Virus record (IMG/VR): IMGVR_UViG_3300020048_000018 | Location: 1-64,000 of that record | DNA: 64,000 bases | Origin: a virus | Direction: 5' to 3' (one strand) | The notes under the pieces: model-generated | Seen by the model: only the letters and a program-made list of their open reading frames with translations | The model's database searches: none | What the model was told of the DNA's origin: nothing | Made by a program: the position numbers and the translations under genes | Shown: positions 13,381 through 51,703 of the stretch, one piece after another | Layout: every line of letters starts with the position of its first letter | How positions within the stretch are numbered: position 1 is the stretch's first letter

Positions 13381-14196
13381 TTGAAACATGAATTAATTTT
13401 TACGCCCTGTAGAAAGTGTATGGGAAAACCTCATCCTTTCATTAAAGGCTTTTGGGTAACACCTAAAGGTTATTATGATATCTATAATAGTTCAGGTCAA
13501 AGACTTTTAGTCGAATGCGAATGTCATAAAAAATTTATGAAAGATGTACGCAACTTCGATGTATATGAAAAAGCAAATATACCTTTTACATTTAAAAACT
13601 TTAATATTGACAAAGAATATAAAGGGAAGGATGTAAACAATAATATAAAAAAATTAAAAACCTATATTGATAAATTTGAAAGTTCTGAGTTTAGTTCTGC
13701 CATTCTTTATTTTTATGGTAGGTCTGGAACTCAAAAAACCTTTACAGCAAAATGGTTGGGAGCACAGATAATTAATAAAAGTAAAAAAGTTGCATATATA
13801 ACAATGCTTGACCTAATTTCTCTTTTACTTAAACCCTTCGATGATGTAAATGTTAAGAAGCCCGAGGATACTTATTCTGGTTTCTTAGATAAAGCCGACC
13901 TAGTTATTATTGATGATTCTTTTGATAAGTCAAGAGTAAGCGTTTGGAAAAGCGGTTATCAGTTACAATTCTTAGATTCCTTCTTAAGAAAAAGACTCGG
14001 TAATAAAAAAGGTCTGGTAATAATTTCAGAGTATTGCATAACTGATATAAGTTCTCAAGGTTTCTCCCCCTCTATTCAGGATTTAATTTCAAGGGAAGTA
14101 AATCTAAAAAAAACAGCTTTCGAGTTTACTGATAACTACGAAGTAAATATACTAGACCCCAAAGGATTGTTCGACGATGAAATCTACAACAATTGA
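13381..14196 (+). CDS. DnaC/IstB-like helicase loader ATPase
   Basis: N-terminal CxxC...CECH; Walker A-like GRSGTQKT; Walker B LVIIDD; overlaps dnaB. Confidence 0.7.
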   Translation: MKHELIFTPCRKCMGKPHPFIKGFWVTPKGYYDIYNSSGQRLLVECECHKKFMKDVRNFDVYEKANIPFTFKNFNIDKEYKGKDVNNNIKKLKTYIDKFESSEFSSAILYFYGRSGTQKTFTAKWLGAQIINKSKKVAYITMLDLISLLLKPFDDVNVKKPEDTYSGFLDKADLVIIDDSFDKSRVSVWKSGYQLQFLDSFLRKRLGNKKGLVIISEYCITDISSQGFSPSIQDLISREVNLKKTAFEFTDNYEVNILDPKGLFDDEIYNN

Positions 14197-26675: not shown

Positions 26676-29270
26676 ATGATTACTACTATAGAAACGACTA
26701 AAATAACAACAAACCTGACAAATAAGAAGAAATTTTCTATAGCGGAATCTCCGAAAGCCTATGAAATTCTATCTAAGCTGTTATATAAAAATCCTGTGAG
26801 GGCGGTTATTAGGGAACTCTCCTGTAATGCCATTGACGCAAATGTGGATGGTAACTCCACTACACCCTTTAAGATTCATCTTCCCTCAGAGGTATATCCC
26901 GAGTTTTATGTAGAAGATTCTGGTATTGGTATGACAGAGGAAGAAGTAAATACTATCTATAAGACCTACTTTGCTTCCAGTAAAAATGGGTCAAATACAA
27001 CTATTGGAGGACTTGGACTTGGTTCAAAATCCCCCTTTTCCCTTGTTAGTCTTTTTAACATTCGTACAACCAAACAAGGAATAACCTCAAACTATGTAGC
27101 TTTTAAGGATGAGGAAGGAATCCCTTCCTGTTCTAAAGTAAACGAATATGAAGCAAAAGAGGGTGAATGTGGAACTCGAATTTCGTTTTCAATTGAAAAT
27201 AAATTAATTGATAGTTTTGCGAACGAAGCCTTTATTGTTATTTGTTCCTTGAAAGAATTACCCACTATTGTAAATGGCAAAGAAAAAATGATAAGTCGCC
27301 AGTTCAATAGCAGTACTAAAAAGTTTGAAACCTTCCACAAAGAAATATACTCGGTTCTTACACAAGAGCATATTACCCCAGAGCATTCAAACTTAATCTC
27401 TAAATGGTATGGGTCTTCAGGAGAAACCTTTGTAAATATGGGAGGGGTTGTTTATCCAGTAGACTTTTCCTTCTTGTTTGATACCGAAAATTTTCTAAGG
27501 AGAAACACTTTTGATAAAGAGTTCTTGAAATCTTTTATTAATCAATGGAAGGGAAAAAACTCTATAATAATGTTACAAGCAGATATTGGCTCATTGAATA
27601 TTCAACCCTCTAGGGAAGAACTTTCTTATGACTCTAAAACCATAGAACTTATTTTAGACAAAGTTTTTGTTCTTATAAGAGACTATGTAAATACAAACCT
27701 AACTACGTCATCTAGGAAGCTCTCGACAGAAGCCTTTTTGAGATTTCTTAAGCATACAAACATTTATAGACAGTATGAAAAACTTGGGGCTAATTCTGGA
27801 TATTTTTCAAAACTACTAACTGAGGAGTTTTCAAAGGAAGTTTGCAGAATACAAGAAATAGACTCTTTTAATAGTAAAGACTTTATTCAGGATAAAGATT
27901 TTCTCTACCTGAAAACAGGGTTTGAGAAAGAGGTATTTAGAAGATCCTATGGTACCAGAAAACACATAATGTATTCTGTAGGTTCCTTTAAGGATGCGTT
28001 GTATCCCTCTGAAGTTCAGATAGTCCCGATAATCCTTGATTCTAAAAAGTTTTTAAAGCTCTTAAGAAATACAAATGGTTATAATGACTATGCTAATAGT
28101 GAATTCACGCTTACTTACAAAGAGTTTAAGGAAAAGTTTAAGACACTCATGACCGAAGATATGTGCAAAAAATATAACATATCCTATCCTGAGATTTCTG
28201 AAACCACCCTCATACTATTGAATGAGGATTGGGAAACAAGAACATCTCTCAGGGATTATTTTTCAAACGTGGGAATTAATACTATCCTAAAGTTTAGTGA
28301 ACTTGAAAATATATATAAGAAGGTAAAACCTGTTTCTGAAAAAAAGAAAAAGGATTTAACTCCACATTCCAAGAAAGAAGAACTAAGTATTATGTATGTT
28401 TCCCCAAAACTTGATGATAAACTTTCAAAATCAAAAATTTCTCATAGTCATTGCTCTGTTTCTCAGTTGGAATCTGTGTTAGATATTGGTGAAAAAGTAT
28501 ACTTCATTGTAAGTTCGGGTAACAAGGAAGTGTATATAAAACCCAGTCTTAGGGTCAAGACTACCCGTATTGCAGAAGTAGAGCAAGTGTCATCCTCGAA
28601 TGACTATTATAGTAAGCTTCATTTTAGTAGGATTAGGGATCTTGTTGACTCCGAGGGAGAGGTTTACTCTCTGATAGTAAAAATACCATTTTACTTTTAC
28701 AAGGGTGAAAAGTTGTTTAATAATACAAACTTTGTAGATTATTATGACAACGTTGTTGATATGTATTCTAAGAAGTTGGAGGATGCAACAATCATGTATA
28801 AGTCTAGTATTAATCATCTTCATCTGGAAAACATTATTGGAACAACCTCAGATATAAGACTAAAAATACTAAAGTTGTTTGAGAAATACACCAATTTTCA
28901 AGAGTCTCCTTTTTATACTAGGATTGAATCTTTTGATATAGAGAATATCAATAAATCAAAAGATGTCATTTGCAAGGTTTTTGACTCGGATAGCCAGCAA
29001 GTACTTCACAGAATCTATAAGATAAAGTATCATGAAAATGAAAAGAAGCTATCTTCTTTTGATAAAATTATCAGTAAGGCAAAAAAAATAAATAGCACTT
29101 ATGTGTTAGATGGCTCGAAAGAACTCTCCGAACACTATCCAATGCTAAAGTATTTCAATGCATCCAAACCCGGTTGTGCCTCCCATAAGTCTATCCCTGA
29201 AAAAGATAGATTTATAGAAGACATAGTTCATTACATAGCCACTATTGACAATCTAAAATTGATTGTCTAA
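26676..29270 (+). CDS. rIIA: rIIA-like protein (GHKL/HSP90-type ATPase N-terminus)
   Basis: IRELSCNAIDA, VEDSGIGMT, SSK...IGGLGLGSKSPFS, GTRISF; followed by an rIIB-like gene. Confidence 0.9.
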   Translation: MITTIETTKITTNLTNKKKFSIAESPKAYEILSKLLYKNPVRAVIRELSCNAIDANVDGNSTTPFKIHLPSEVYPEFYVEDSGIGMTEEEVNTIYKTYFASSKNGSNTTIGGLGLGSKSPFSLVSLFNIRTTKQGITSNYVAFKDEEGIPSCSKVNEYEAKEGECGTRISFSIENKLIDSFANEAFIVICSLKELPTIVNGKEKMISRQFNSSTKKFETFHKEIYSVLTQEHITPEHSNLISKWYGSSGETFVNMGGVVYPVDFSFLFDTENFLRRNTFDKEFLKSFINQWKGKNSIIMLQADIGSLNIQPSREELSYDSKTIELILDKVFVLIRDYVNTNLTTSSRKLSTEAFLRFLKHTNIYRQYEKLGANSGYFSKLLTEEFSKEVCRIQEIDSFNSKDFIQDKDFLYLKTGFEKEVFRRSYGTRKHIMYSVGSFKDALYPSEVQIVPIILDSKKFLKLLRNTNGYNDYANSEFTLTYKEFKEKFKTLMTEDMCKKYNISYPEISETTLILLNEDWETRTSLRDYFSNVGINTILKFSELENIYKKVKPVSEKKKKDLTPHSKKEELSIMYVSPKLDDKLSKSKISHSHCSVSQLESVLDIGEKVYFIVSSGNKEVYIKPSLRVKTTRIAEVEQVSSSNDYYSKLHFSRIRDLVDSEGEVYSLIVKIPFYFYKGEKLFNNTNFVDYYDNVVDMYSKKLEDATIMYKSSINHLHLENIIGTTSDIRLKILKLFEKYTNFQESPFYTRIESFDIENINKSKDVICKVFDSDSQQVLHRIYKIKYHENEKKLSSFDKIISKAKKINSTYVLDGSKELSEHYPMLKYFNASKPGCASHKSIPEKDRFIEDIVHYIATIDNLKLIV

Positions 29271-44755: not shown

Positions 44756-45366
44756 TGTCGGATAACTACAGGATTGTTGGAGAATTGGTTATCAATCAAC
44801 GTGATGACGTTGTGGCTAAATTTATTCTCAATCCTTTGGGAGAAAAAGCCAGAAGGGATGAAAGTTTCAATGACCTTTCAACATTGATAGGAAGTTTTTC
44901 TGTTGATACCCTCTATGATATTATTCATAACTTTGTAAGGGTTTGTGAAAAAACTTCCGAGTACGACAAAACAGGTCAGTCCTATTACAGGGCAAAAAAC
45001 TGGTTGAAAGAATATGACCAGTCCCATGAACTCAGTTGCTATTCAACGGATGACAATGAGGATGAAGACGAAACTGATTACACCGGACTCCCCATCCTAA
45101 CCAGTAGCTTTTTGGATAACTTCATGGAAGCCCCAGAAGCCTTGATACTGGTAGAAGATGGACACACCTATGTTTGTAACAACGGAAGCATTTTCATCGT
45201 TGAAAAAACAAAGAATCAGTCCCTTCAATACAAGTTCAAGGTAAAGACCTCCATCAATTGTTCAAATGATACTGAAGTGTGGGACATCCACGGGAAAGCA
45301 TATCATGATGATTGTGGATACAACTTTGTAAGAGAAATCATACAGAGGGAAGAGGATCTTGGATGA
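44755..45366 (+). CDS. Hypothetical protein
   Basis: ORF track. Confidence 0.7.
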   Translation: MSDNYRIVGELVINQRDDVVAKFILNPLGEKARRDESFNDLSTLIGSFSVDTLYDIIHNFVRVCEKTSEYDKTGQSYYRAKNWLKEYDQSHELSCYSTDDNEDEDETDYTGLPILTSSFLDNFMEAPEALILVEDGHTYVCNNGSIFIVEKTKNQSLQYKFKVKTSINCSNDTEVWDIHGKAYHDDCGYNFVREIIQREEDLG

Positions 45367-45512
45367 AAAAGAATTATTGTACAAAGTGTTTGCCAAAGAA
45401 AGTTGAAATGGTTAAAACCCAAACTTCAAAAAAGTATGACTTCATGGCAGACTGGGTTCAGTATGTTTACACCTGTCCTAAATGTGGACACAGCTTTGAG
45501 AGAAATAAATAG
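45363..45512 (+). CDS. Small Zn-ribbon protein
   Basis: CTKC...YTCPKCG; ATGA coupling. Confidence 0.6.
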   Translation: MKKNYCTKCLPKKVEMVKTQTSKKYDFMADWVQYVYTCPKCGHSFERNK

Positions 45513-45524
45513 GAAGGTTTGAAA

Positions 45525-45671
45525 ATGAAATGTCCTAAATGTGATGAAAATACTACCCTTGGAATTTCGGAATGCCCTCATTGTGGTTGGTCTTTTGATT
45601 TAGATAATACTTGGAACGAGGATGACTTTGTTAGAGAAGACATCGATTCTCTTAATGAGAAATTGGGATGA
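45525..45671 (+). CDS. Small Zn-ribbon protein (48 aa)
   Basis: Manual translation MKCPKCD...ECPHCGW. Confidence 0.6.
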   Translation: MKCPKCDENTTLGISECPHCGWSFDLDNTWNEDDFVREDIDSLNEKLG

Positions 45672-45844
45672 TTTTCTTACAAGCTTTCAGTGGTCTTATT
45701 GGAATACTTTTAGGGTGTTTCCTTGTTACATTTATGCTCCTTCTCATAAAGAATCGAGTTATTTTACTTATTATTAATGGAACAGTAATCCTTGCAATTA
45801 TACTGTGGTGTACCTATTATCTTAATAAATATGGGGTGTTCTAA
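45668..45844 (+). CDS. Small two-helix membrane protein (58 aa)
   Basis: Manual translation MIFLQAFSGLIGILLG...; ATGA coupling. Confidence 0.55.
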   Translation: MIFLQAFSGLIGILLGCFLVTFMLLLIKNRVILLIINGTVILAIILWCTYYLNKYGVF

Positions 45845-46120: not shown

Positions 46121-46447
46121 ATGAAAGCAACAATGGAAAATTATGCAGGAAGAAAAGTAATCCACTTAGTAGCGGAAACTCCTGAGGAACAATTGGAGCT
46201 TAATTCCTTTGAGGTACTAACCAATAATGGGTTTGAGGTTTTTGACCGAAATGGGGTTTTGTATACAGGATTAAATGCAATTCGTCTTAACGGTGTTAGT
46301 ATTTCTGATTCAAGTCATTGCTCATCCCTTTGCATTGAATCTGTTACTGACAGTGAATCAAAACAGGCTATTTATACAAAGAGCCTAGAAATAAAACTGA
46401 AATCCAAGAAGTGGTATCAGTTCTGGAGAAAAAATGAAATCTTTTGA
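46121..46447 (+). CDS. Hypothetical protein
   Basis: RBS; C-terminal KKWYQFW motif. Confidence 0.65.
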   Translation: MKATMENYAGRKVIHLVAETPEEQLELNSFEVLTNNGFEVFDRNGVLYTGLNAIRLNGVSISDSSHCSSLCIESVTDSESKQAIYTKSLEIKLKSKKWYQFWRKNEIF

Positions 46448-47024
46448 CACTATCCTTTCGGCTATCCTTGCTTCGGCAGGATTTCTTTTTTCCTTGATTC
46501 TTTTCGAGTTTGGGATAATTGCTTCTGTGATAATTGGAGGTTTGTTTTTTGTAGCAGGTTATTTCCTGTTCGAGGCAAAAACCAAAATTGAAGAGGACAA
46601 AGAGTTTGCAATGGAAGAAGCCTTGAAAATGGGGAACTCAAAGCTCTCAGAAATCAAGTCCTTGGGCAAAGCAATTAAACAGCAAAATCTTAAAGAAAAG
46701 ATCACAAAGATTTGTGAAATTACGGAAAAGATTCTTGCGGAGGTGAAACGAGACCCCTCAGACTTGAAACGAGCAAAACAGTTTCTTAACTATTATCTTG
46801 ATTCTACAATAAAGATAGTTAGCACCTATGTTAAGTTGGCAACCACTGAGGTTAACGACAAAAGCATAAAGGACTACATGGTTAAGATTGAAACCATGCT
46901 TGATACTTTGGCACAAGCTTTTGATAAGCAACTTGCAATGCTTCTTTCAAATGACGTTATGGATTTGGATGTAGAGCTTTCCCTTCTTGAGTCTATGATT
47001 AAATCAGAAAACTTGGGAAATTAG
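46434..47024 (+). CDS. xpaC: XpaC / 5-bromo-4-chloroindolyl phosphate hydrolysis family membrane protein
   Basis: Two N-terminal TM helices; FLNYYLDSTIKIVSTY and DVMDLDVELSLL motifs; directly upstream of telA, as in bacterial xpaC-telA/yaaN pairs. Confidence 0.8.
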   Translation: MKSFDTILSAILASAGFLFSLILFEFGIIASVIIGGLFFVAGYFLFEAKTKIEEDKEFAMEEALKMGNSKLSEIKSLGKAIKQQNLKEKITKICEITEKILAEVKRDPSDLKRAKQFLNYYLDSTIKIVSTYVKLATTEVNDKSIKDYMVKIETMLDTLAQAFDKQLAMLLSNDVMDLDVELSLLESMIKSENLGN

Positions 47025-47063
47025 CTTAAAATATTTTTAGAGAAAAATAACTAAGGAGTTATC

Positions 47064-48104
47064 ATGAACGAATTGAGTTTGGCAAATCCAACTACGGTAG
47101 ATTTGGTTAAAGCCAAAAGTGTTGCTGACGGAATATCAAGCACCGATTCTCAGGCACTAATAATGTATGGTGTTAGCGCACAAACAAAGATTTCGGGATT
47201 TGCAGACACCATGCTTACCCAGATTCGTAACAAAGATTCTGGTACGGTAGGGGAATCCCTTACTGACTTGATGTTCAAAATCAAGGATGTAAAGGTTGAT
47301 ACTCTTACTTCTGGAAAGCAGGGATTTATAGCTGGTCTTATGAACAGCGTAACTCGCTTCATGGCTCGATATGAAAAAATTGAAAGCCAGATGGAAAAGA
47401 TTATTGACGAACTGTCAAAATCAAAGATGAACATGAGTCGGGACATTGTTATGCTCGACCAGCTATATGCAAAGAATTTGGAATACCTCGGAGACCTTGA
47501 CCTTTTCATTGTGGGTGGACAGATGAAGATTGATGAGCTAAAAGCCACAGTACTCATCGAACTTGAGGAATTGGTAAAAACATCAACAGACCCTTCCGAC
47601 ACTCAGAAGCTGAATGACTTCAATCAGTTCCTGAACCGCTTCGAGAAAAAGATTTACGACCTCAAGTTGTCTCGGATGATTTCCATCCAGTCGGCACCCC
47701 AGATTCGTCTTATCCAGAACAATGACATTGCTCTGGTAGATAAGATTCAGAGTTCAATCATGACTACTATCCCACTGTGGAAGAGTCAGATTGTTATCGC
47801 AATCTCCCTGCTTCGCCAGAAAAATGCTCTGGGTGTACAGAAAGCCGTTACCGATGCCACCAATGACCTTCTCACCAAAAACTCTGACATGCTCAAGCAA
47901 GGAACAATTGCAGTAGCAACGGAAATGGAACGAGGGATTGTTGAAATCGAAACCTTGAAAAAAGTCAATGATGACCTTATTGCTACCATTGATGAAACCA
48001 TCCGTATCCAGACCGAAGGAAAGGCAAAGCGTCTTGCCGCAGAAACAGAATTGGTTAAGCTTGAAGCTGACCTTAAAACAAAACTTTTGAGTGTTAAAGC
48101 TTAA
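47064..48104 (+). CDS. telA: Toxic anion resistance protein TelA family
   Basis: LYAKNLEYL, KKIYDLKLSRMISIQSAPQIRLIQNND..LVDKIQSS...TIPLWKSQ, RGIVEIETLKKVN. Confidence 0.92.
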   Translation: MNELSLANPTTVDLVKAKSVADGISSTDSQALIMYGVSAQTKISGFADTMLTQIRNKDSGTVGESLTDLMFKIKDVKVDTLTSGKQGFIAGLMNSVTRFMARYEKIESQMEKIIDELSKSKMNMSRDIVMLDQLYAKNLEYLGDLDLFIVGGQMKIDELKATVLIELEELVKTSTDPSDTQKLNDFNQFLNRFEKKIYDLKLSRMISIQSAPQIRLIQNNDIALVDKIQSSIMTTIPLWKSQIVIAISLLRQKNALGVQKAVTDATNDLLTKNSDMLKQGTIAVATEMERGIVEIETLKKVNDDLIATIDETIRIQTEGKAKRLAAETELVKLEADLKTKLLSVKA

Positions 48105-48123
48105 AGTTTAAGGGAGTACTTTT

Positions 48124-48249
48124 ATGAAATACTTAGGAAAAGGAATTGTAATTTTTGCTTTTCTGTACATGATTCTAATAACTGTACTGTTTACAGACGA
48201 AATAAGAAATCGTGTGGGTACTCTTTTAAGTACTCTCTTTATCGCATAA
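48124..48249 (+). CDS. Small hydrophobic peptide (41 aa)
   Basis: Manual translation MKYLGKGIVIFAFLYMILITVLF...; RBS GGGAG. Confidence 0.5.
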   Translation: MKYLGKGIVIFAFLYMILITVLFTDEIRNRVGTLLSTLFIA

Positions 48250-48265
48250 TTTTGGAGGTATTAGT

Positions 48266-49924
48266 ATGAAACGTATTTTTATTGGAATTGCAATCGTAGT
48301 TGTTGCACTTGGACTGGGAATTGGTTACAAGATGACCTTGGGGGGAACTTCAACTTCCACATCGGCAAAAAAAGATGCAGGCGGTTACACCTTCGCAAAA
48401 GCTGAACCCCTTACCGTTACAGGGGTTGGTGGCTACCAGCTTTCCTCCGTAGACCTTGGTGATGGACAGGTTCCCCTCATTCAGATTCCTCTGGACACAT
48501 GGGGTGGATACGCTTCTCTGTTTGCGGCAAACGGAGGTTCAAAGCCCAACAAGGATTCACTCTTTTACAAGAAGGGTAAATTTGCAGTAGAACTTATTAA
48601 TGAGGAAAGTGCTTCTGCACAGCTCTCAGGATATTCCTCTGGTCGCTATCCTATTATTTGGGCACCCATGGACAGCCTTCCCCTTTTGTTTGATGCATTT
48701 CGTTCCGACAAGCGCATTGCTCCAAAAGTGCTTGGACTCTTTGATTGGTCTTCTGGTGGGGATGGTATTATCGTTCGTAACTCAATCAAGAATCCTGCGG
48801 ATCTCAAAGGTAAGATTGTACTCACATCGAGCAATACTCCTTACAGCTTCCTTCTTCTCTGGTACTTGTCGCAGGTAGGTCTTGCTGGGACGGACGTAAA
48901 GGTTGTATGGGTGGACGATGGTGACAAAGCCTTGAAGATGTTCAAGGAAGATGAAAATATTTCAGCTTGGGTTTCATGGACACCTTACATTAATGATGTG
49001 GTGAACTCTACCTCAGAAAGTCATATTCCAAATACCCGTCTCCTTATTTCTTCCAAGGATGCAAATCAGCTTATCGCTGATACGTTCATCGTTCGGAATG
49101 ACCTTTTTCAGGACAAGCCTGATATGATGGTTGCTTTTGTTGAAGCAGTAGTTGAAGGTACTCAGATGATTGATACTACCACCTACAATGCCATGGCAAC
49201 TTTTTATAAACTGAAAAGTGCTGGGGAAGCAAAAGCAATGCTTGATGATGTTCATCTTGCAAACTTTACAGAAATGAAAATGTTCTTCGAGGATACAAAC
49301 CCTATTGGTGCTTACAAAGTATTTCTTCTCTCACAGGAATACTACAAGCAGATGGGTGTTATTGCTCCTGCAAACTCTTATGACCCTGAGCGTGTTCTTA
49401 CAAATACAATCATGGCTAAGATTGATGCAACTGGTGCTTACAAGAACCAGAAGAATATGATGATTGACTCTTTCAACAAAAAAGCCGCATTTGATATTTC
49501 TGACCTTGAAAATCAGCGTGTTGTTTTGACGAATGATGTTAAATTGTTCTTTGAAGCCCAGAAGCTTGAGTTTGACCTTAACTCGGGCACCCCAGAAATG
49601 ATTGAAAATAAAAGAATGCTGAACACCGTTTCTGAGCAGACAAAGTTCCTTGCTACCACCGTAGTAAAACTTATCGGACATCTCGATACTGCAAAAGTTG
49701 AGGAGTTCAAGTCAGCAGGAAATCAGAAGTTTATTGAAGCTTCCGCTCAGGCTAAATTGGTATCCAAGAAACGTGCAGAGTATGTCAAAAAACTTCTTGT
49801 AGAAACATATGGTGTTGACCCTGAACGTATCATTACTGAAGGTCGTGGATGGAGTGATCCAATTGAAGGTGGTGAGCCAGAAGCAAACCGCCGAGTAGTA
49901 GTCCAGTTTATTTCATTGGAGTAG
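48266..49924 (+). CDS. NitT/TauT (PBP2) substrate-binding domain fused to C-terminal OmpA-like peptidoglycan-binding domain
   Basis: N-terminal TM/signal; DWSSGGDGIIVR..IK..ADLKGK, W.PY, IAD....R; C-terminal RAEYVK..L...YGVDPERI...GRG...P...NRRV. Confidence 0.85.
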   Translation: MKRIFIGIAIVVVALGLGIGYKMTLGGTSTSTSAKKDAGGYTFAKAEPLTVTGVGGYQLSSVDLGDGQVPLIQIPLDTWGGYASLFAANGGSKPNKDSLFYKKGKFAVELINEESASAQLSGYSSGRYPIIWAPMDSLPLLFDAFRSDKRIAPKVLGLFDWSSGGDGIIVRNSIKNPADLKGKIVLTSSNTPYSFLLLWYLSQVGLAGTDVKVVWVDDGDKALKMFKEDENISAWVSWTPYINDVVNSTSESHIPNTRLLISSKDANQLIADTFIVRNDLFQDKPDMMVAFVEAVVEGTQMIDTTTYNAMATFYKLKSAGEAKAMLDDVHLANFTEMKMFFEDTNPIGAYKVFLLSQEYYKQMGVIAPANSYDPERVLTNTIMAKIDATGAYKNQKNMMIDSFNKKAAFDISDLENQRVVLTNDVKLFFEAQKLEFDLNSGTPEMIENKRMLNTVSEQTKFLATTVVKLIGHLDTAKVEEFKSAGNQKFIEASAQAKLVSKKRAEYVKKLLVETYGVDPERIITEGRGWSDPIEGGEPEANRRVVVQFISLE

Positions 49925-49927
49925 CAC

Positions 49928-50731
49928 TTGAAAAAAATATTTTTCATTCTTCTTGCAATGCTTTTGGTTGTTGGTTGTGAAAAAGCCCCGTCAGGGGTTT
50001 CCACAGGGACTTCTATTAAGGCAGTAAAAGTAAAGAAAGCCGGTTATGAGCTTCAGTTTTCTGACTCATTTAATGTAGGTATGAACCGAGTAGATGACTT
50101 CGGGATTTCGGTATCCCTCATTGTGGATGTTTCTGGTTCAATGAATGAATCTCCCAGAAGTGGAGGAAACAAAAAGTCTATCCAAGCTACTGATGCTTTG
50201 TTGACGATCATTGAATATATTGAGTCCATTTCAGAAAAACAGAAAGACCTGAAAATAAATGTTTCAGTTCTTAAGTTTGGAAGCTATGTAAACGAGGTGT
50301 ATCCTCTTACTACAATGACAAAAGAAGAGTTCCTTAAACTTAAGGGTTTGTGTACGTATAAGATGTTCGCCCCTTCAGATGGTACTGCAATTGGTAAAGC
50401 CTTGGAAAAAGGTAGTGAGGTTCTTGCTCAGTCAGGAACCATACTAAACAGTATGATACTTATTTCTGATGGTGAAAACTCCGTAGGGATTTCTCCTGAA
50501 CCCGTACTTCAAGGAATCTATGCAGATAATAACAATAAGAGTACCCCTGATTTTGTGGTTAATACTTCAACTCAGCTTATTAGCTTTATAGGTTTCGATG
50601 TAGGGTCAAATGTGTTCGACGGTATCAAACAATATGGTGCAAGAGTAAGTTCCGCAGGGAATCAGATAGAGCTTGAAGAAAGCCTCAAGGCATTGCTCGA
50701 AGCCGATATAACAAAACTCGAAAGCAACTAG
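49928..50731 (+). CDS. vWA-domain lipoprotein
   Basis: Lipobox LVVG-C; DVSGSM, GTAIG.AL, LISDGEN, IGFD. Confidence 0.85.
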   Translation: MKKIFFILLAMLLVVGCEKAPSGVSTGTSIKAVKVKKAGYELQFSDSFNVGMNRVDDFGISVSLIVDVSGSMNESPRSGGNKKSIQATDALLTIIEYIESISEKQKDLKINVSVLKFGSYVNEVYPLTTMTKEEFLKLKGLCTYKMFAPSDGTAIGKALEKGSEVLAQSGTILNSMILISDGENSVGISPEPVLQGIYADNNNKSTPDFVVNTSTQLISFIGFDVGSNVFDGIKQYGARVSSAGNQIELEESLKALLEADITKLESN

Positions 50732-50821
50732 CTTTCTTGTGAGTCCCTATTCCAGATTTGGCTGGCATCAATCTTTCGAGGGATTGGTGGGGTATAAACT
50801 TTAAGATTAAAGGAAAATAAT

Positions 50822-51442
50822 ATGGGAAGAAACTCTTACTATGGACATCAAAGAAGTGGAATGAAAAGGAAGTACTGGATTATAATTGCTGTTTCATTAA
50901 TAACTATTTGTACTCTTTCCTTTCTTGGGTTTCATACAACAGAGGGGAAATTGGCGGTTGTTTCAAAAAATTGGAATAGAACAATTGTAATTCAAAAATA
51001 TGATTGGGTTCATTATTCTCGTGAAAGTTCATTTGTACCGGATGGTGCAATTAATGTCCGTAAATGGACTGAAAGGGAAGTATCCCATTATACCGACTCA
51101 AATGGAAAAAGAAAATCAAGAACACACTATAATAATCATGTGTCTTATGATGTTCAGGAATGGTGCTTTTCTAGGGAAGTTTCTTCATCAGGTACACAAG
51201 ATACAGACCCATTTTGGGGAGCCTATATTTTGGCTAAAAATCCTCCCGAAAGAGAGGGGATAAAAGAACAGAAATACACAATCAACTTTCAACTGCAAGA
51301 AAGTATAAAAACAAAGGTTTATAAAACCAAGTCTTTCGAGGAGTATTCTTCTTTAAGCCTTGATAGGAATTATGTTTGCTCTATCAATGGATTTGGTTTT
51401 ATTACCAAAGTAAAAGATTTGTCTTTTGAGTGGAAGTACTAA
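50822..51442 (+). CDS. Membrane-anchored hypothetical protein
   Basis: One N-terminal TM helix followed by a beta-rich domain. Confidence 0.7.
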   Translation: MGRNSYYGHQRSGMKRKYWIIIAVSLITICTLSFLGFHTTEGKLAVVSKNWNRTIVIQKYDWVHYSRESSFVPDGAINVRKWTEREVSHYTDSNGKRKSRTHYNNHVSYDVQEWCFSREVSSSGTQDTDPFWGAYILAKNPPEREGIKEQKYTINFQLQESIKTKVYKTKSFEEYSSLSLDRNYVCSINGFGFITKVKDLSFEWKY

Positions 51443-51703
51443 ATGAAACATATTTTAGTTATCTGTATATTTTGTCTTCTGTTTGTTTCCTGTGAAAAAC
51501 GTACCCCTGATGAGTTAGTAGGCACCTATGTGTATACCTATGGAAAACCTGCTGAGGTGCATATGTATAAGGGATCTTGGGAATCTAAGGAATACATCTT
51601 TTATAAGGATGGTACAAAGGTTTCTATAACCTACCAAAAAGGCTTGAGAGGTTGGTATGTTCATGAGCTTGATATTGTGAACAATTATTATATAGAAAGG
51701 TAG
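51443..51703 (+). CDS. Small lipoprotein
   Basis: Lipobox LFVS-C. Confidence 0.65.
   Translation: MKHILVICIFCLLFVSCEKRTPDELVGTYVYTYGKPAEVHMYKGSWESKEYIFYKDGTKVSITYQKGLRGWYVHELDIVNNYYIER

Follow-up and report, generated by a model that had tools for sequence, protein, structure and literature searches.

Why should a large phage carry a closely packed run of cellular envelope genes? The question is raised by positions 46434-51703 of a 64,000-nucleotide stretch of viral DNA (hereafter the window), which comprises positions 1-64,000 of the IMG/VR record IMGVR_UViG_3300020048_000018. The parent record is 178 kb long, has a CheckV completeness of 69% and is classed as viral; its genes include an exonuclease and, inside the window, a CCA-adding enzyme, a DnaB-like helicase and rIIA/rIIB. 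Because of these last genes and the viral class of the record, the assignment of the window to a phage holds, and its virus is a large uncultured T4-like phage. The conserved unit within the region is a four-gene cassette (46434-50731) that encodes XpaC, TelA, a TauA/SsuA-type solute-binding domain fused to an OmpA-like domain (PBP-OmpA) and a vWA lipoprotein. We consider it probable, with some room for doubt, that the cassette is an operon from a Treponemataceae-like spirochaete, kept under purifying selection, and that it represents a TelA-based variant of phage-shock-protein (PSP)-type membrane maintenance that is reused during infection.

Seven co-directional and closely packed open reading frames (ORFs) were found over 46434-51703 by ORF listing and translation (Table 1). 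The original prediction for this DNA had described their products in the same terms, and its description was confirmed for all seven by Pfam matches, lipoboxes, transmembrane (TM) segments and the metal-ion-dependent adhesion site (MIDAS) of the vWA protein; the profile searches for TelA (PF05816), PF10112, NMT1/OmpA and VWA all gave matches. XpaC scored 119 bits against PF10112 (Halogen_Hydrol; cut-off 29.8), with a hydrophobic stretch at approximately residues 7-47. TelA scored 370 bits against PF05816 (cut-off 30), its residues 19-342 aligning with profile positions 3-331 of 332, and its AlphaFold (AF2) model is all-alpha with helices of up to ~100 residues, at low confidence (predicted local distance difference test, pLDDT, 57). 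The NitT/TauT-type binding domain that had been proposed to be fused to OmpA is upheld by both profile and structure: NMT1 (29.1 bits, cut-off 20.5) and OmpA (PF00691; 38 bits, cut-off 27.2) are both above their cut-offs, and the AF2 model (pLDDT 81.8) comprises an N-terminal TM helix (residues 4-19), a disordered linker, a two-lobed PBP domain (45-400) and a separate OmpA-like domain (418-552). The top Foldseek matches of this model were E. coli TauA (6ssy, E 2e-14) and SsuA, with a target TM-score of ~0.71. The OmpA motif residues predicted to bind peptidoglycan, namely D474 in GHLD(T), R503 in KKRA and R542/R543 in NRRV, are invariant in 24 sequences. The vWA lipoprotein has an intact MIDAS (DVSGS, GTAIG, SDGEN), the DxSGS/T/D residues being at least 95% conserved among 44 homologues. 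Each cassette gene is preceded by a Shine-Dalgarno sequence and the ORFs are full length; these are intact genes, not pseudogenes. A scan for promoter and terminator consensus sequences found such sites to be no more numerous than in shuffled sequence.

Table 1. ORFs of the region under study, with their positions in the window.
Feature	Position	Strand	Remarks
XpaC-like membrane protein, first cassette gene	46434..47024	+	PF10112, E 2.6e-34; N-terminal hydrophobic hairpin and helical cytoplasmic domain
TelA, cytoplasmic, toxic-anion-resistance family	47064..48104	+	PF05816, E 1.2e-110; phrog_5890, E 1.7e-61
41-aa single-TM ORF between TelA and PBP-OmpA	48124..48249	+	Phage-specific; of uncertain reality
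PBP-OmpA: TauA/SsuA-type solute-binding domain and C-terminal OmpA-like peptidoglycan-binding domain, inner-membrane-anchored	48266..49924	+	Pfam NMT1, OmpA
vWA lipoprotein, last cassette gene	49928..50731	+	TTG start; VVGC lipobox; Pfam VWA_2 (41 bits) and VWA
206-aa type-II TM-anchored membrane protein, phage ORFan	50822..51442	+	No Pfam match; GC content at third codon positions (GC3) 0.275, equal to the phage background
86-aa lipoprotein abutting the 206-aa gene, phage-specific	51443..51703	+	FVSC lipobox

The origin of the cassette was sought through the relatives of its genes. Among 5.8 billion proteins, 173 homologues of PBP-OmpA were found; the 120 listed are 50-73% identical to it, and every named one among them belongs to the Spirochaetota (Treponemataceae, Rectinemataceae), several lying on contigs 0.5-3.2 Mb long. 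When one genome was scanned for each species, 55 loci were obtained, all from Spirochaetota. XpaC-TelA lies directly upstream in 22 of these 55, and all four genes are present in the phage order in 17 of the 22; some of the other five end at a contig edge. At matching positions, the phage proteins are 38-51% (XpaC), 61-75% (TelA), 61-73% (PBP-OmpA) and 47-59% (vWA) identical to their spirochaete orthologues. The flanks of the bacterial operons differ between loci and consist of unrelated housekeeping genes. Since the upstream ORF, the 41-aa, 206-aa and 86-aa ORFs and the downstream ORF have no counterpart in related loci, the conserved unit is limited to the four genes. The proposal that the phage had captured a complete envelope gene set therefore stands for the four genes conserved in Spirochaetota and falls for the 41-aa, 206-aa and 86-aa ORFs, which have no homologue in the other copies. 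Quick maximum-likelihood trees of PBP-OmpA and TelA, used together with approximately unbiased (AU) tests, are congruent, and in both of them the copy in the window is nested in a Treponemataceae-type clade, where it groups with L033, L013-L019 and related loci. Judged by its sequence, the cassette is a single piece taken from a Treponemataceae-like spirochaete, and the donor lineage is probably that of the phage's host as well.

Was the operon captured once, or more often? No match to the region was found by megablast among 50,697 phage records, nor by a single-protein scan of viral contigs; an alignment-based scan was needed, and it found the whole cassette in three other IMG/VR contigs (L010 in the 114-kb contig G001, L011 and L012 in G002 and G003). 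The XpaC-TelA-PBP/OmpA-vWA order is thus conserved in spirochaete chromosomes and in three other viral contigs, and in these other phages the homologues recur as a whole cluster, not singly. G001 carries a T4-type (Gp23-type) major capsid gene (26783-28144, L082; E 9e-71) about 13 kb from the cassette, and G003 carries Thg1-like, RNA ligase (Rnl1/Rnl2-like), nicotinamide phosphoribosyltransferase-like and phosphoesterase genes (L076-L078). These other contigs that carry the cassette are large T4-like phages; approximately 5-6 non-cassette genes, at 26-55% identity, are common to them and the window's phage. In both trees the remaining viral copies have L029 (and L063) as sister, in a clade apart from the copy in the window, and the AU test rejects a single phage clade (log-likelihood difference 63, p 5e-4 for TelA; 127, p ~0 for PBP-OmpA). 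Agreement between the two gene trees tested, together with the conserved gene order, suggests that the cassette was transferred whole on two or more occasions. When the two other phage lineages are compared, the ratio of nonsynonymous to synonymous substitution rates (dN/dS) is 0.05 for TelA, 0.06 for PBP-OmpA and 0.13 for vWA, values that are approximate, dS being near saturation.

What the cassette might do is suggested by its wider family. Spirochaete loci take three forms. Form A, which is that of the phage, is XpaC - TelA - PBP/OmpA - vWA; Form B is PBP/OmpA - vWA - XpaC-like, with no TelA; and Form C, found in Brevinematales-like metagenome-assembled genomes (MAGs), is lipoprotein solute-binding protein - PBP/OmpA - BPD_transp_1 permease - ABC ATPase - vWA. 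Several Form C loci have XpaC, TelA or both nearby, and one (L057) has an AAA+ gene. XpaC accompanies the PBP/OmpA-vWA pair in all three forms. The AAA+ ATPase of L057 (10294-12219; 641 aa) follows the vWA gene and has a weak TerB-like N-terminal region. Beyond these loci, a HMMER search of 1.84 billion representatives returned 1,362 relatives, many of them full-length PBP-OmpA fusions at 25-33% identity. In two of six sampled contexts the fusion lies directly downstream of PspA_IM30: the distant PBP-OmpA proteins of L083 (5215-7815) and L087 (5151-12338), 30-32% identical to that of the phage, come right after it. In L087 these are followed by genes for a permease, an ATPase, a 297-aa helical membrane protein (two TM segments and a coiled coil) and an AAA+ ATPase; the 297-aa protein has no significant match to XpaC. 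In the phage records there was no match to PspA_IM30, and there is no AAA+ gene inside the cassette. Two further features of the spirochaete loci were noted. In the bacterial chromosome of L004, a 74-aa ORF (13952-14176) lies ~3.5 kb downstream of the operon and is 69% identical to the last 48 residues of vWA. Some single spirochaete MAGs also have two PBP-OmpA paralogue loci (L026 and L032; L021 and L035; L025 and L045), one with XpaC-TelA upstream and the other with no XpaC, TelA or vWA detected nearby.

Since PspA holds the place of TelA in sister operons, beside the same PBP-OmpA sensor, TelA and XpaC may act in a PspA-like manner, as a helical scaffold under the membrane that would stabilize or remodel the cytoplasmic membrane. 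In such an arrangement the binding protein would sit in the inner membrane by its single TM helix, with its OmpA domain tied to peptidoglycan and its TauA/SsuA-like cleft facing the periplasm. The vWA lipoprotein would be its periplasmic partner, bound via the MIDAS site; XpaC would span the inner membrane and connect to cytoplasmic TelA; and the periplasmic sensor pair of PBP-OmpA and vWA would control TelA-XpaC. By expressing the set, the phage could keep the membrane of the infected cell intact and energized throughout a long infection. Two independent captures, each under purifying selection, suggest that the four proteins act together and that, as a set, they bring a gain during infection. 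The role suggested for TelA-XpaC fits what is known from Firmicutes: the effect of E. faecium XpaC on daptomycin binding and on phospholipid microdomains depends on TelA (PMC6811118), and a Listeria telA mutant is cited as nisin-sensitive in PMC12791056. A stronger version, which we put forward only tentatively and hold to be doubtful, is that TelA and XpaC are the functional replacement of PspA/ESCRT-III in a family of peptidoglycan-tethered sensors, and that large spirochaete phages took the whole unit repeatedly, keeping the inner membrane intact or closed to rivals. If this were true, the cassette would be the first complete envelope-stress system known in a phage and a natural handle on the mechanism of TelA.

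Several points weigh against this interpretation. The TelA model (pLDDT 57) has no significant match to Vipp1/PspA folds (E 0.08-0.3); since the model is poor and these matches fall short, it is gene position that carries the analogy between TelA and PspA. What was observed here is the gene content of the cassette, its origin, its repeated capture, the selection on it, and its folds and motifs; we infer the membrane role and its stabilizing character, the physical contacts between the cassette proteins, the ligand and the benefit to the phage. The group submitted to the AU tests was defined after inspection of the tree, and the scan of viral contigs used two peptide patterns, which makes the count of phage copies a minimum. 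Finally, the host is assigned from the donor lineage, and the phage has a GC content of 34% compared with 50-65% in the nearest bacterial homologues of the cassette.

How does a role in membrane maintenance compare with other uses that a phage could make of these genes? The main rival is superinfection exclusion, in which TelA under the membrane, together with PBP-OmpA and vWA in the periplasm, would block DNA entry by competing phages. It overlaps with membrane maintenance, and both may hold. The original prediction had raised exclusion as a possible function, along with lysis timing and resistance to depolarising defences. Iyer et al. 2021 (PMC7824862) reported jumbo phages in which TelA occurs singly or Ter operons are short, and proposed exclusion as their role; TelA is encoded in 158 phage records, and the two independent captures point to a phage-specific benefit. 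Nevertheless we regard it as rather unlikely, since the spirochaete operon is chromosomal and flanked by housekeeping genes, not by defence islands, and the PADLOC defence models gave no match to the six proteins searched at E <= 0.01. A reading of the cluster as a known defence system was rejected, having no PADLOC support. The same applies to a Ter-associated locus, the neighbourhood to which the original prediction had pointed: no TerD was found in the phage records or among the Pfam matches in the module (TerC and TerB were not searched genome-wide), and the nearest described relatives turned out to be the PspA/Snf7-ABC-PBP/OmpA operons (PMC11237479).

A nutrient-uptake auxiliary is a less attractive possibility. 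Here the binding protein would pass a sulfonate-, taurine- or nitrate-like solute to an ABC importer of the host, with TelA, XpaC and vWA as passengers. The fold is indeed of the TauA/SsuA type, and PBP-OmpA adjoins a BPD_transp_1 permease and an ABC ATPase in deep-branching spirochaete operons, in distant relatives and in phage G. However, the absence of an ABC permease beside the binding protein, which had been noted for the window, extends to the whole 178-kb record; no BPD_transp_1 match was found anywhere in it, in G001 or in G003, and the ~22 Form A bacterial operons have no permease either. A transport role is unlikely because of this. A binding domain tied to membrane and peptidoglycan is moreover ill-suited to solute shuttling, phages keep all four genes unbroken and under selection, and the trees of TelA and PBP-OmpA agree with each other. 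These points leave nutrient uptake improbable.

We give similarly little credence to the idea that all seven ORFs form one functional module, to which the phage would have added the 41-aa, 206-aa and 86-aa products as subunits. The seven ORFs are co-directional and closely packed, and the three extra products are all of membrane or lipoprotein types. Yet none of the three has a homologue in any related cassette copy, bacterial or viral, and the GC3 of the extra ORFs equals the phage background. The 41-aa ORF has a good Shine-Dalgarno sequence upstream (AAGGGAG) and a phage-like GC3 of 0.24, and it occurs in no other bacterial or viral copy of the cassette, where the gap between TelA and PBP is just 0-90 nucleotides (nt). 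The 206-aa protein is separated from vWA by a 90-nt gap and is an ORFan: a word-index search of 5.8 billion proteins matched it to itself alone. The succession of a bitopic protein and a small lipoprotein would also suit a spanin pair. The conserved cassette includes none of the three (41-aa, 206-aa and 86-aa) products. In 50822-51703, the stop of the 206-aa gene abuts the start of the 86-aa gene, and both this layout and the lipobox are spanin-like. The one family match for the pair is a weak one of the 86-aa lipoprotein to the Rz-like spanin phrog_812 (E 1.7e-4); no lysis genes were found near 50822-51703 and no coiled coil was evident in the sequence. On the other side of the cassette, just upstream of it (45366-45840), lies a small hydrophobic ORF together with two very short ones whose paired CxxC motifs resemble a zinc ribbon; none of the three has a PHROG match.

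That the region is a chimera made by the assembly, or passenger DNA that arrived recently and does nothing for the phage, is very hard to credit: the cassette region is the GC-richest part of the window and its genes are of cellular origin, but a chimera is excluded by the GC3 values (0.34-0.45 in the cassette genes, compared with a mean of 0.285, standard deviation 0.065, in 29 other phage ORFs and 0.70-0.90 in the closest bacterial homologues) and by the phage ORFans that border the cassette on both sides, one of them overlapped by the XpaC start by 14 nt, and in addition no bacterial protein exceeds 75% identity and the cassette occurs under purifying selection in other phages. The pattern fits an old acquisition whose composition has by now covered most of the distance to the phage's own.

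TelA is widespread, has been linked to nisin and daptomycin tolerance and is common in large phages. Its positional interchangeability with PspA, beside the same PBP-OmpA sensor, provides a concrete and testable hypothesis of how TelA may act. The capture of a whole operon also goes beyond the stand-alone phage TelA genes noted so far, and it makes spirochaetes the probable hosts of several large T4-like phages that are uncultured. To our knowledge, spirochaetes have very few known phages.

How, then, does the cassette relate to systems already described? The jumbo-phage TelA and abbreviated Ter operons (PMC7824862; phrog_5890) share with it a TelA encoded by a large phage; there, however, TelA stands alone or with TerD, TerC and TerF, whereas the TelA of the window lies within a complete four-gene spirochaete operon. 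The NMT1-OmpA fusions of Bacillus phage G (gp249/gp250) and of the Lak megaphages (phrog_25518) have the same two-domain architecture over their full length, at 22-24% identity. Neither phage G nor the Lak megaphages could be accepted as a holder of the cassette: phage G lacks TelA and has its fusions beside an ABC permease and ATPase, and in Lak-A1 TelA lies ~85 kb from the fusion gene. The phage G region (L002, 171.5-178.6 kb) contains the ABC permease gp243, the ABC ATPase gp245, gp246, gp247, gp248 and the NMT1-OmpA proteins gp249 and gp250, and has the appearance of a PSP-type PBP/OmpA transporter operon carried by a jumbo phage. Its gp247 has an N-terminal TM segment and a long coiled coil; it aligns end to end with PspA at 20% identity, which is not significant (E 0.29).

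The xpaC-telA (yaaN) pair of Firmicutes (B. subtilis, Listeria lmo1966-67, E. faecium) has both Pfam families, adjacent and in the same order, and is tied to tolerance of membrane-active antimicrobials. Unlike the cassette, it stands alone, without PBP-OmpA or vWA, and the phage TelA shares no more than 49% identity with Firmicute-type TelA in the phage database, compared with 61-75% with the spirochaete proteins. Closest of all are the PspA/Snf7-AAA+-ABC-PBP/OmpA operons, for which a link between membrane remodelling and solute transport has been proposed (Ravi et al. 2024, mSystems; PMC11237479). In these, too, an OmpA peptidoglycan-binding domain is joined to a solute-binding domain, and the fusion lies beside a cytoplasmic coiled-coil membrane-stress protein, and Form C shares their layout of permease, ATPase and AAA+ genes. 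The differences are that the cassette has XpaC and TelA in place of PspA/Snf7, plus a vWA lipoprotein, and that the ABC and AAA+ genes are missing from the phage cassette and from Form A; TelA, XpaC and vWA are unmentioned in that study and no phage copy is described there. The cassette is a TelA-based variant of this published class of PSP-type operons, with a function that, by analogy to them, would lie in maintaining the membrane.

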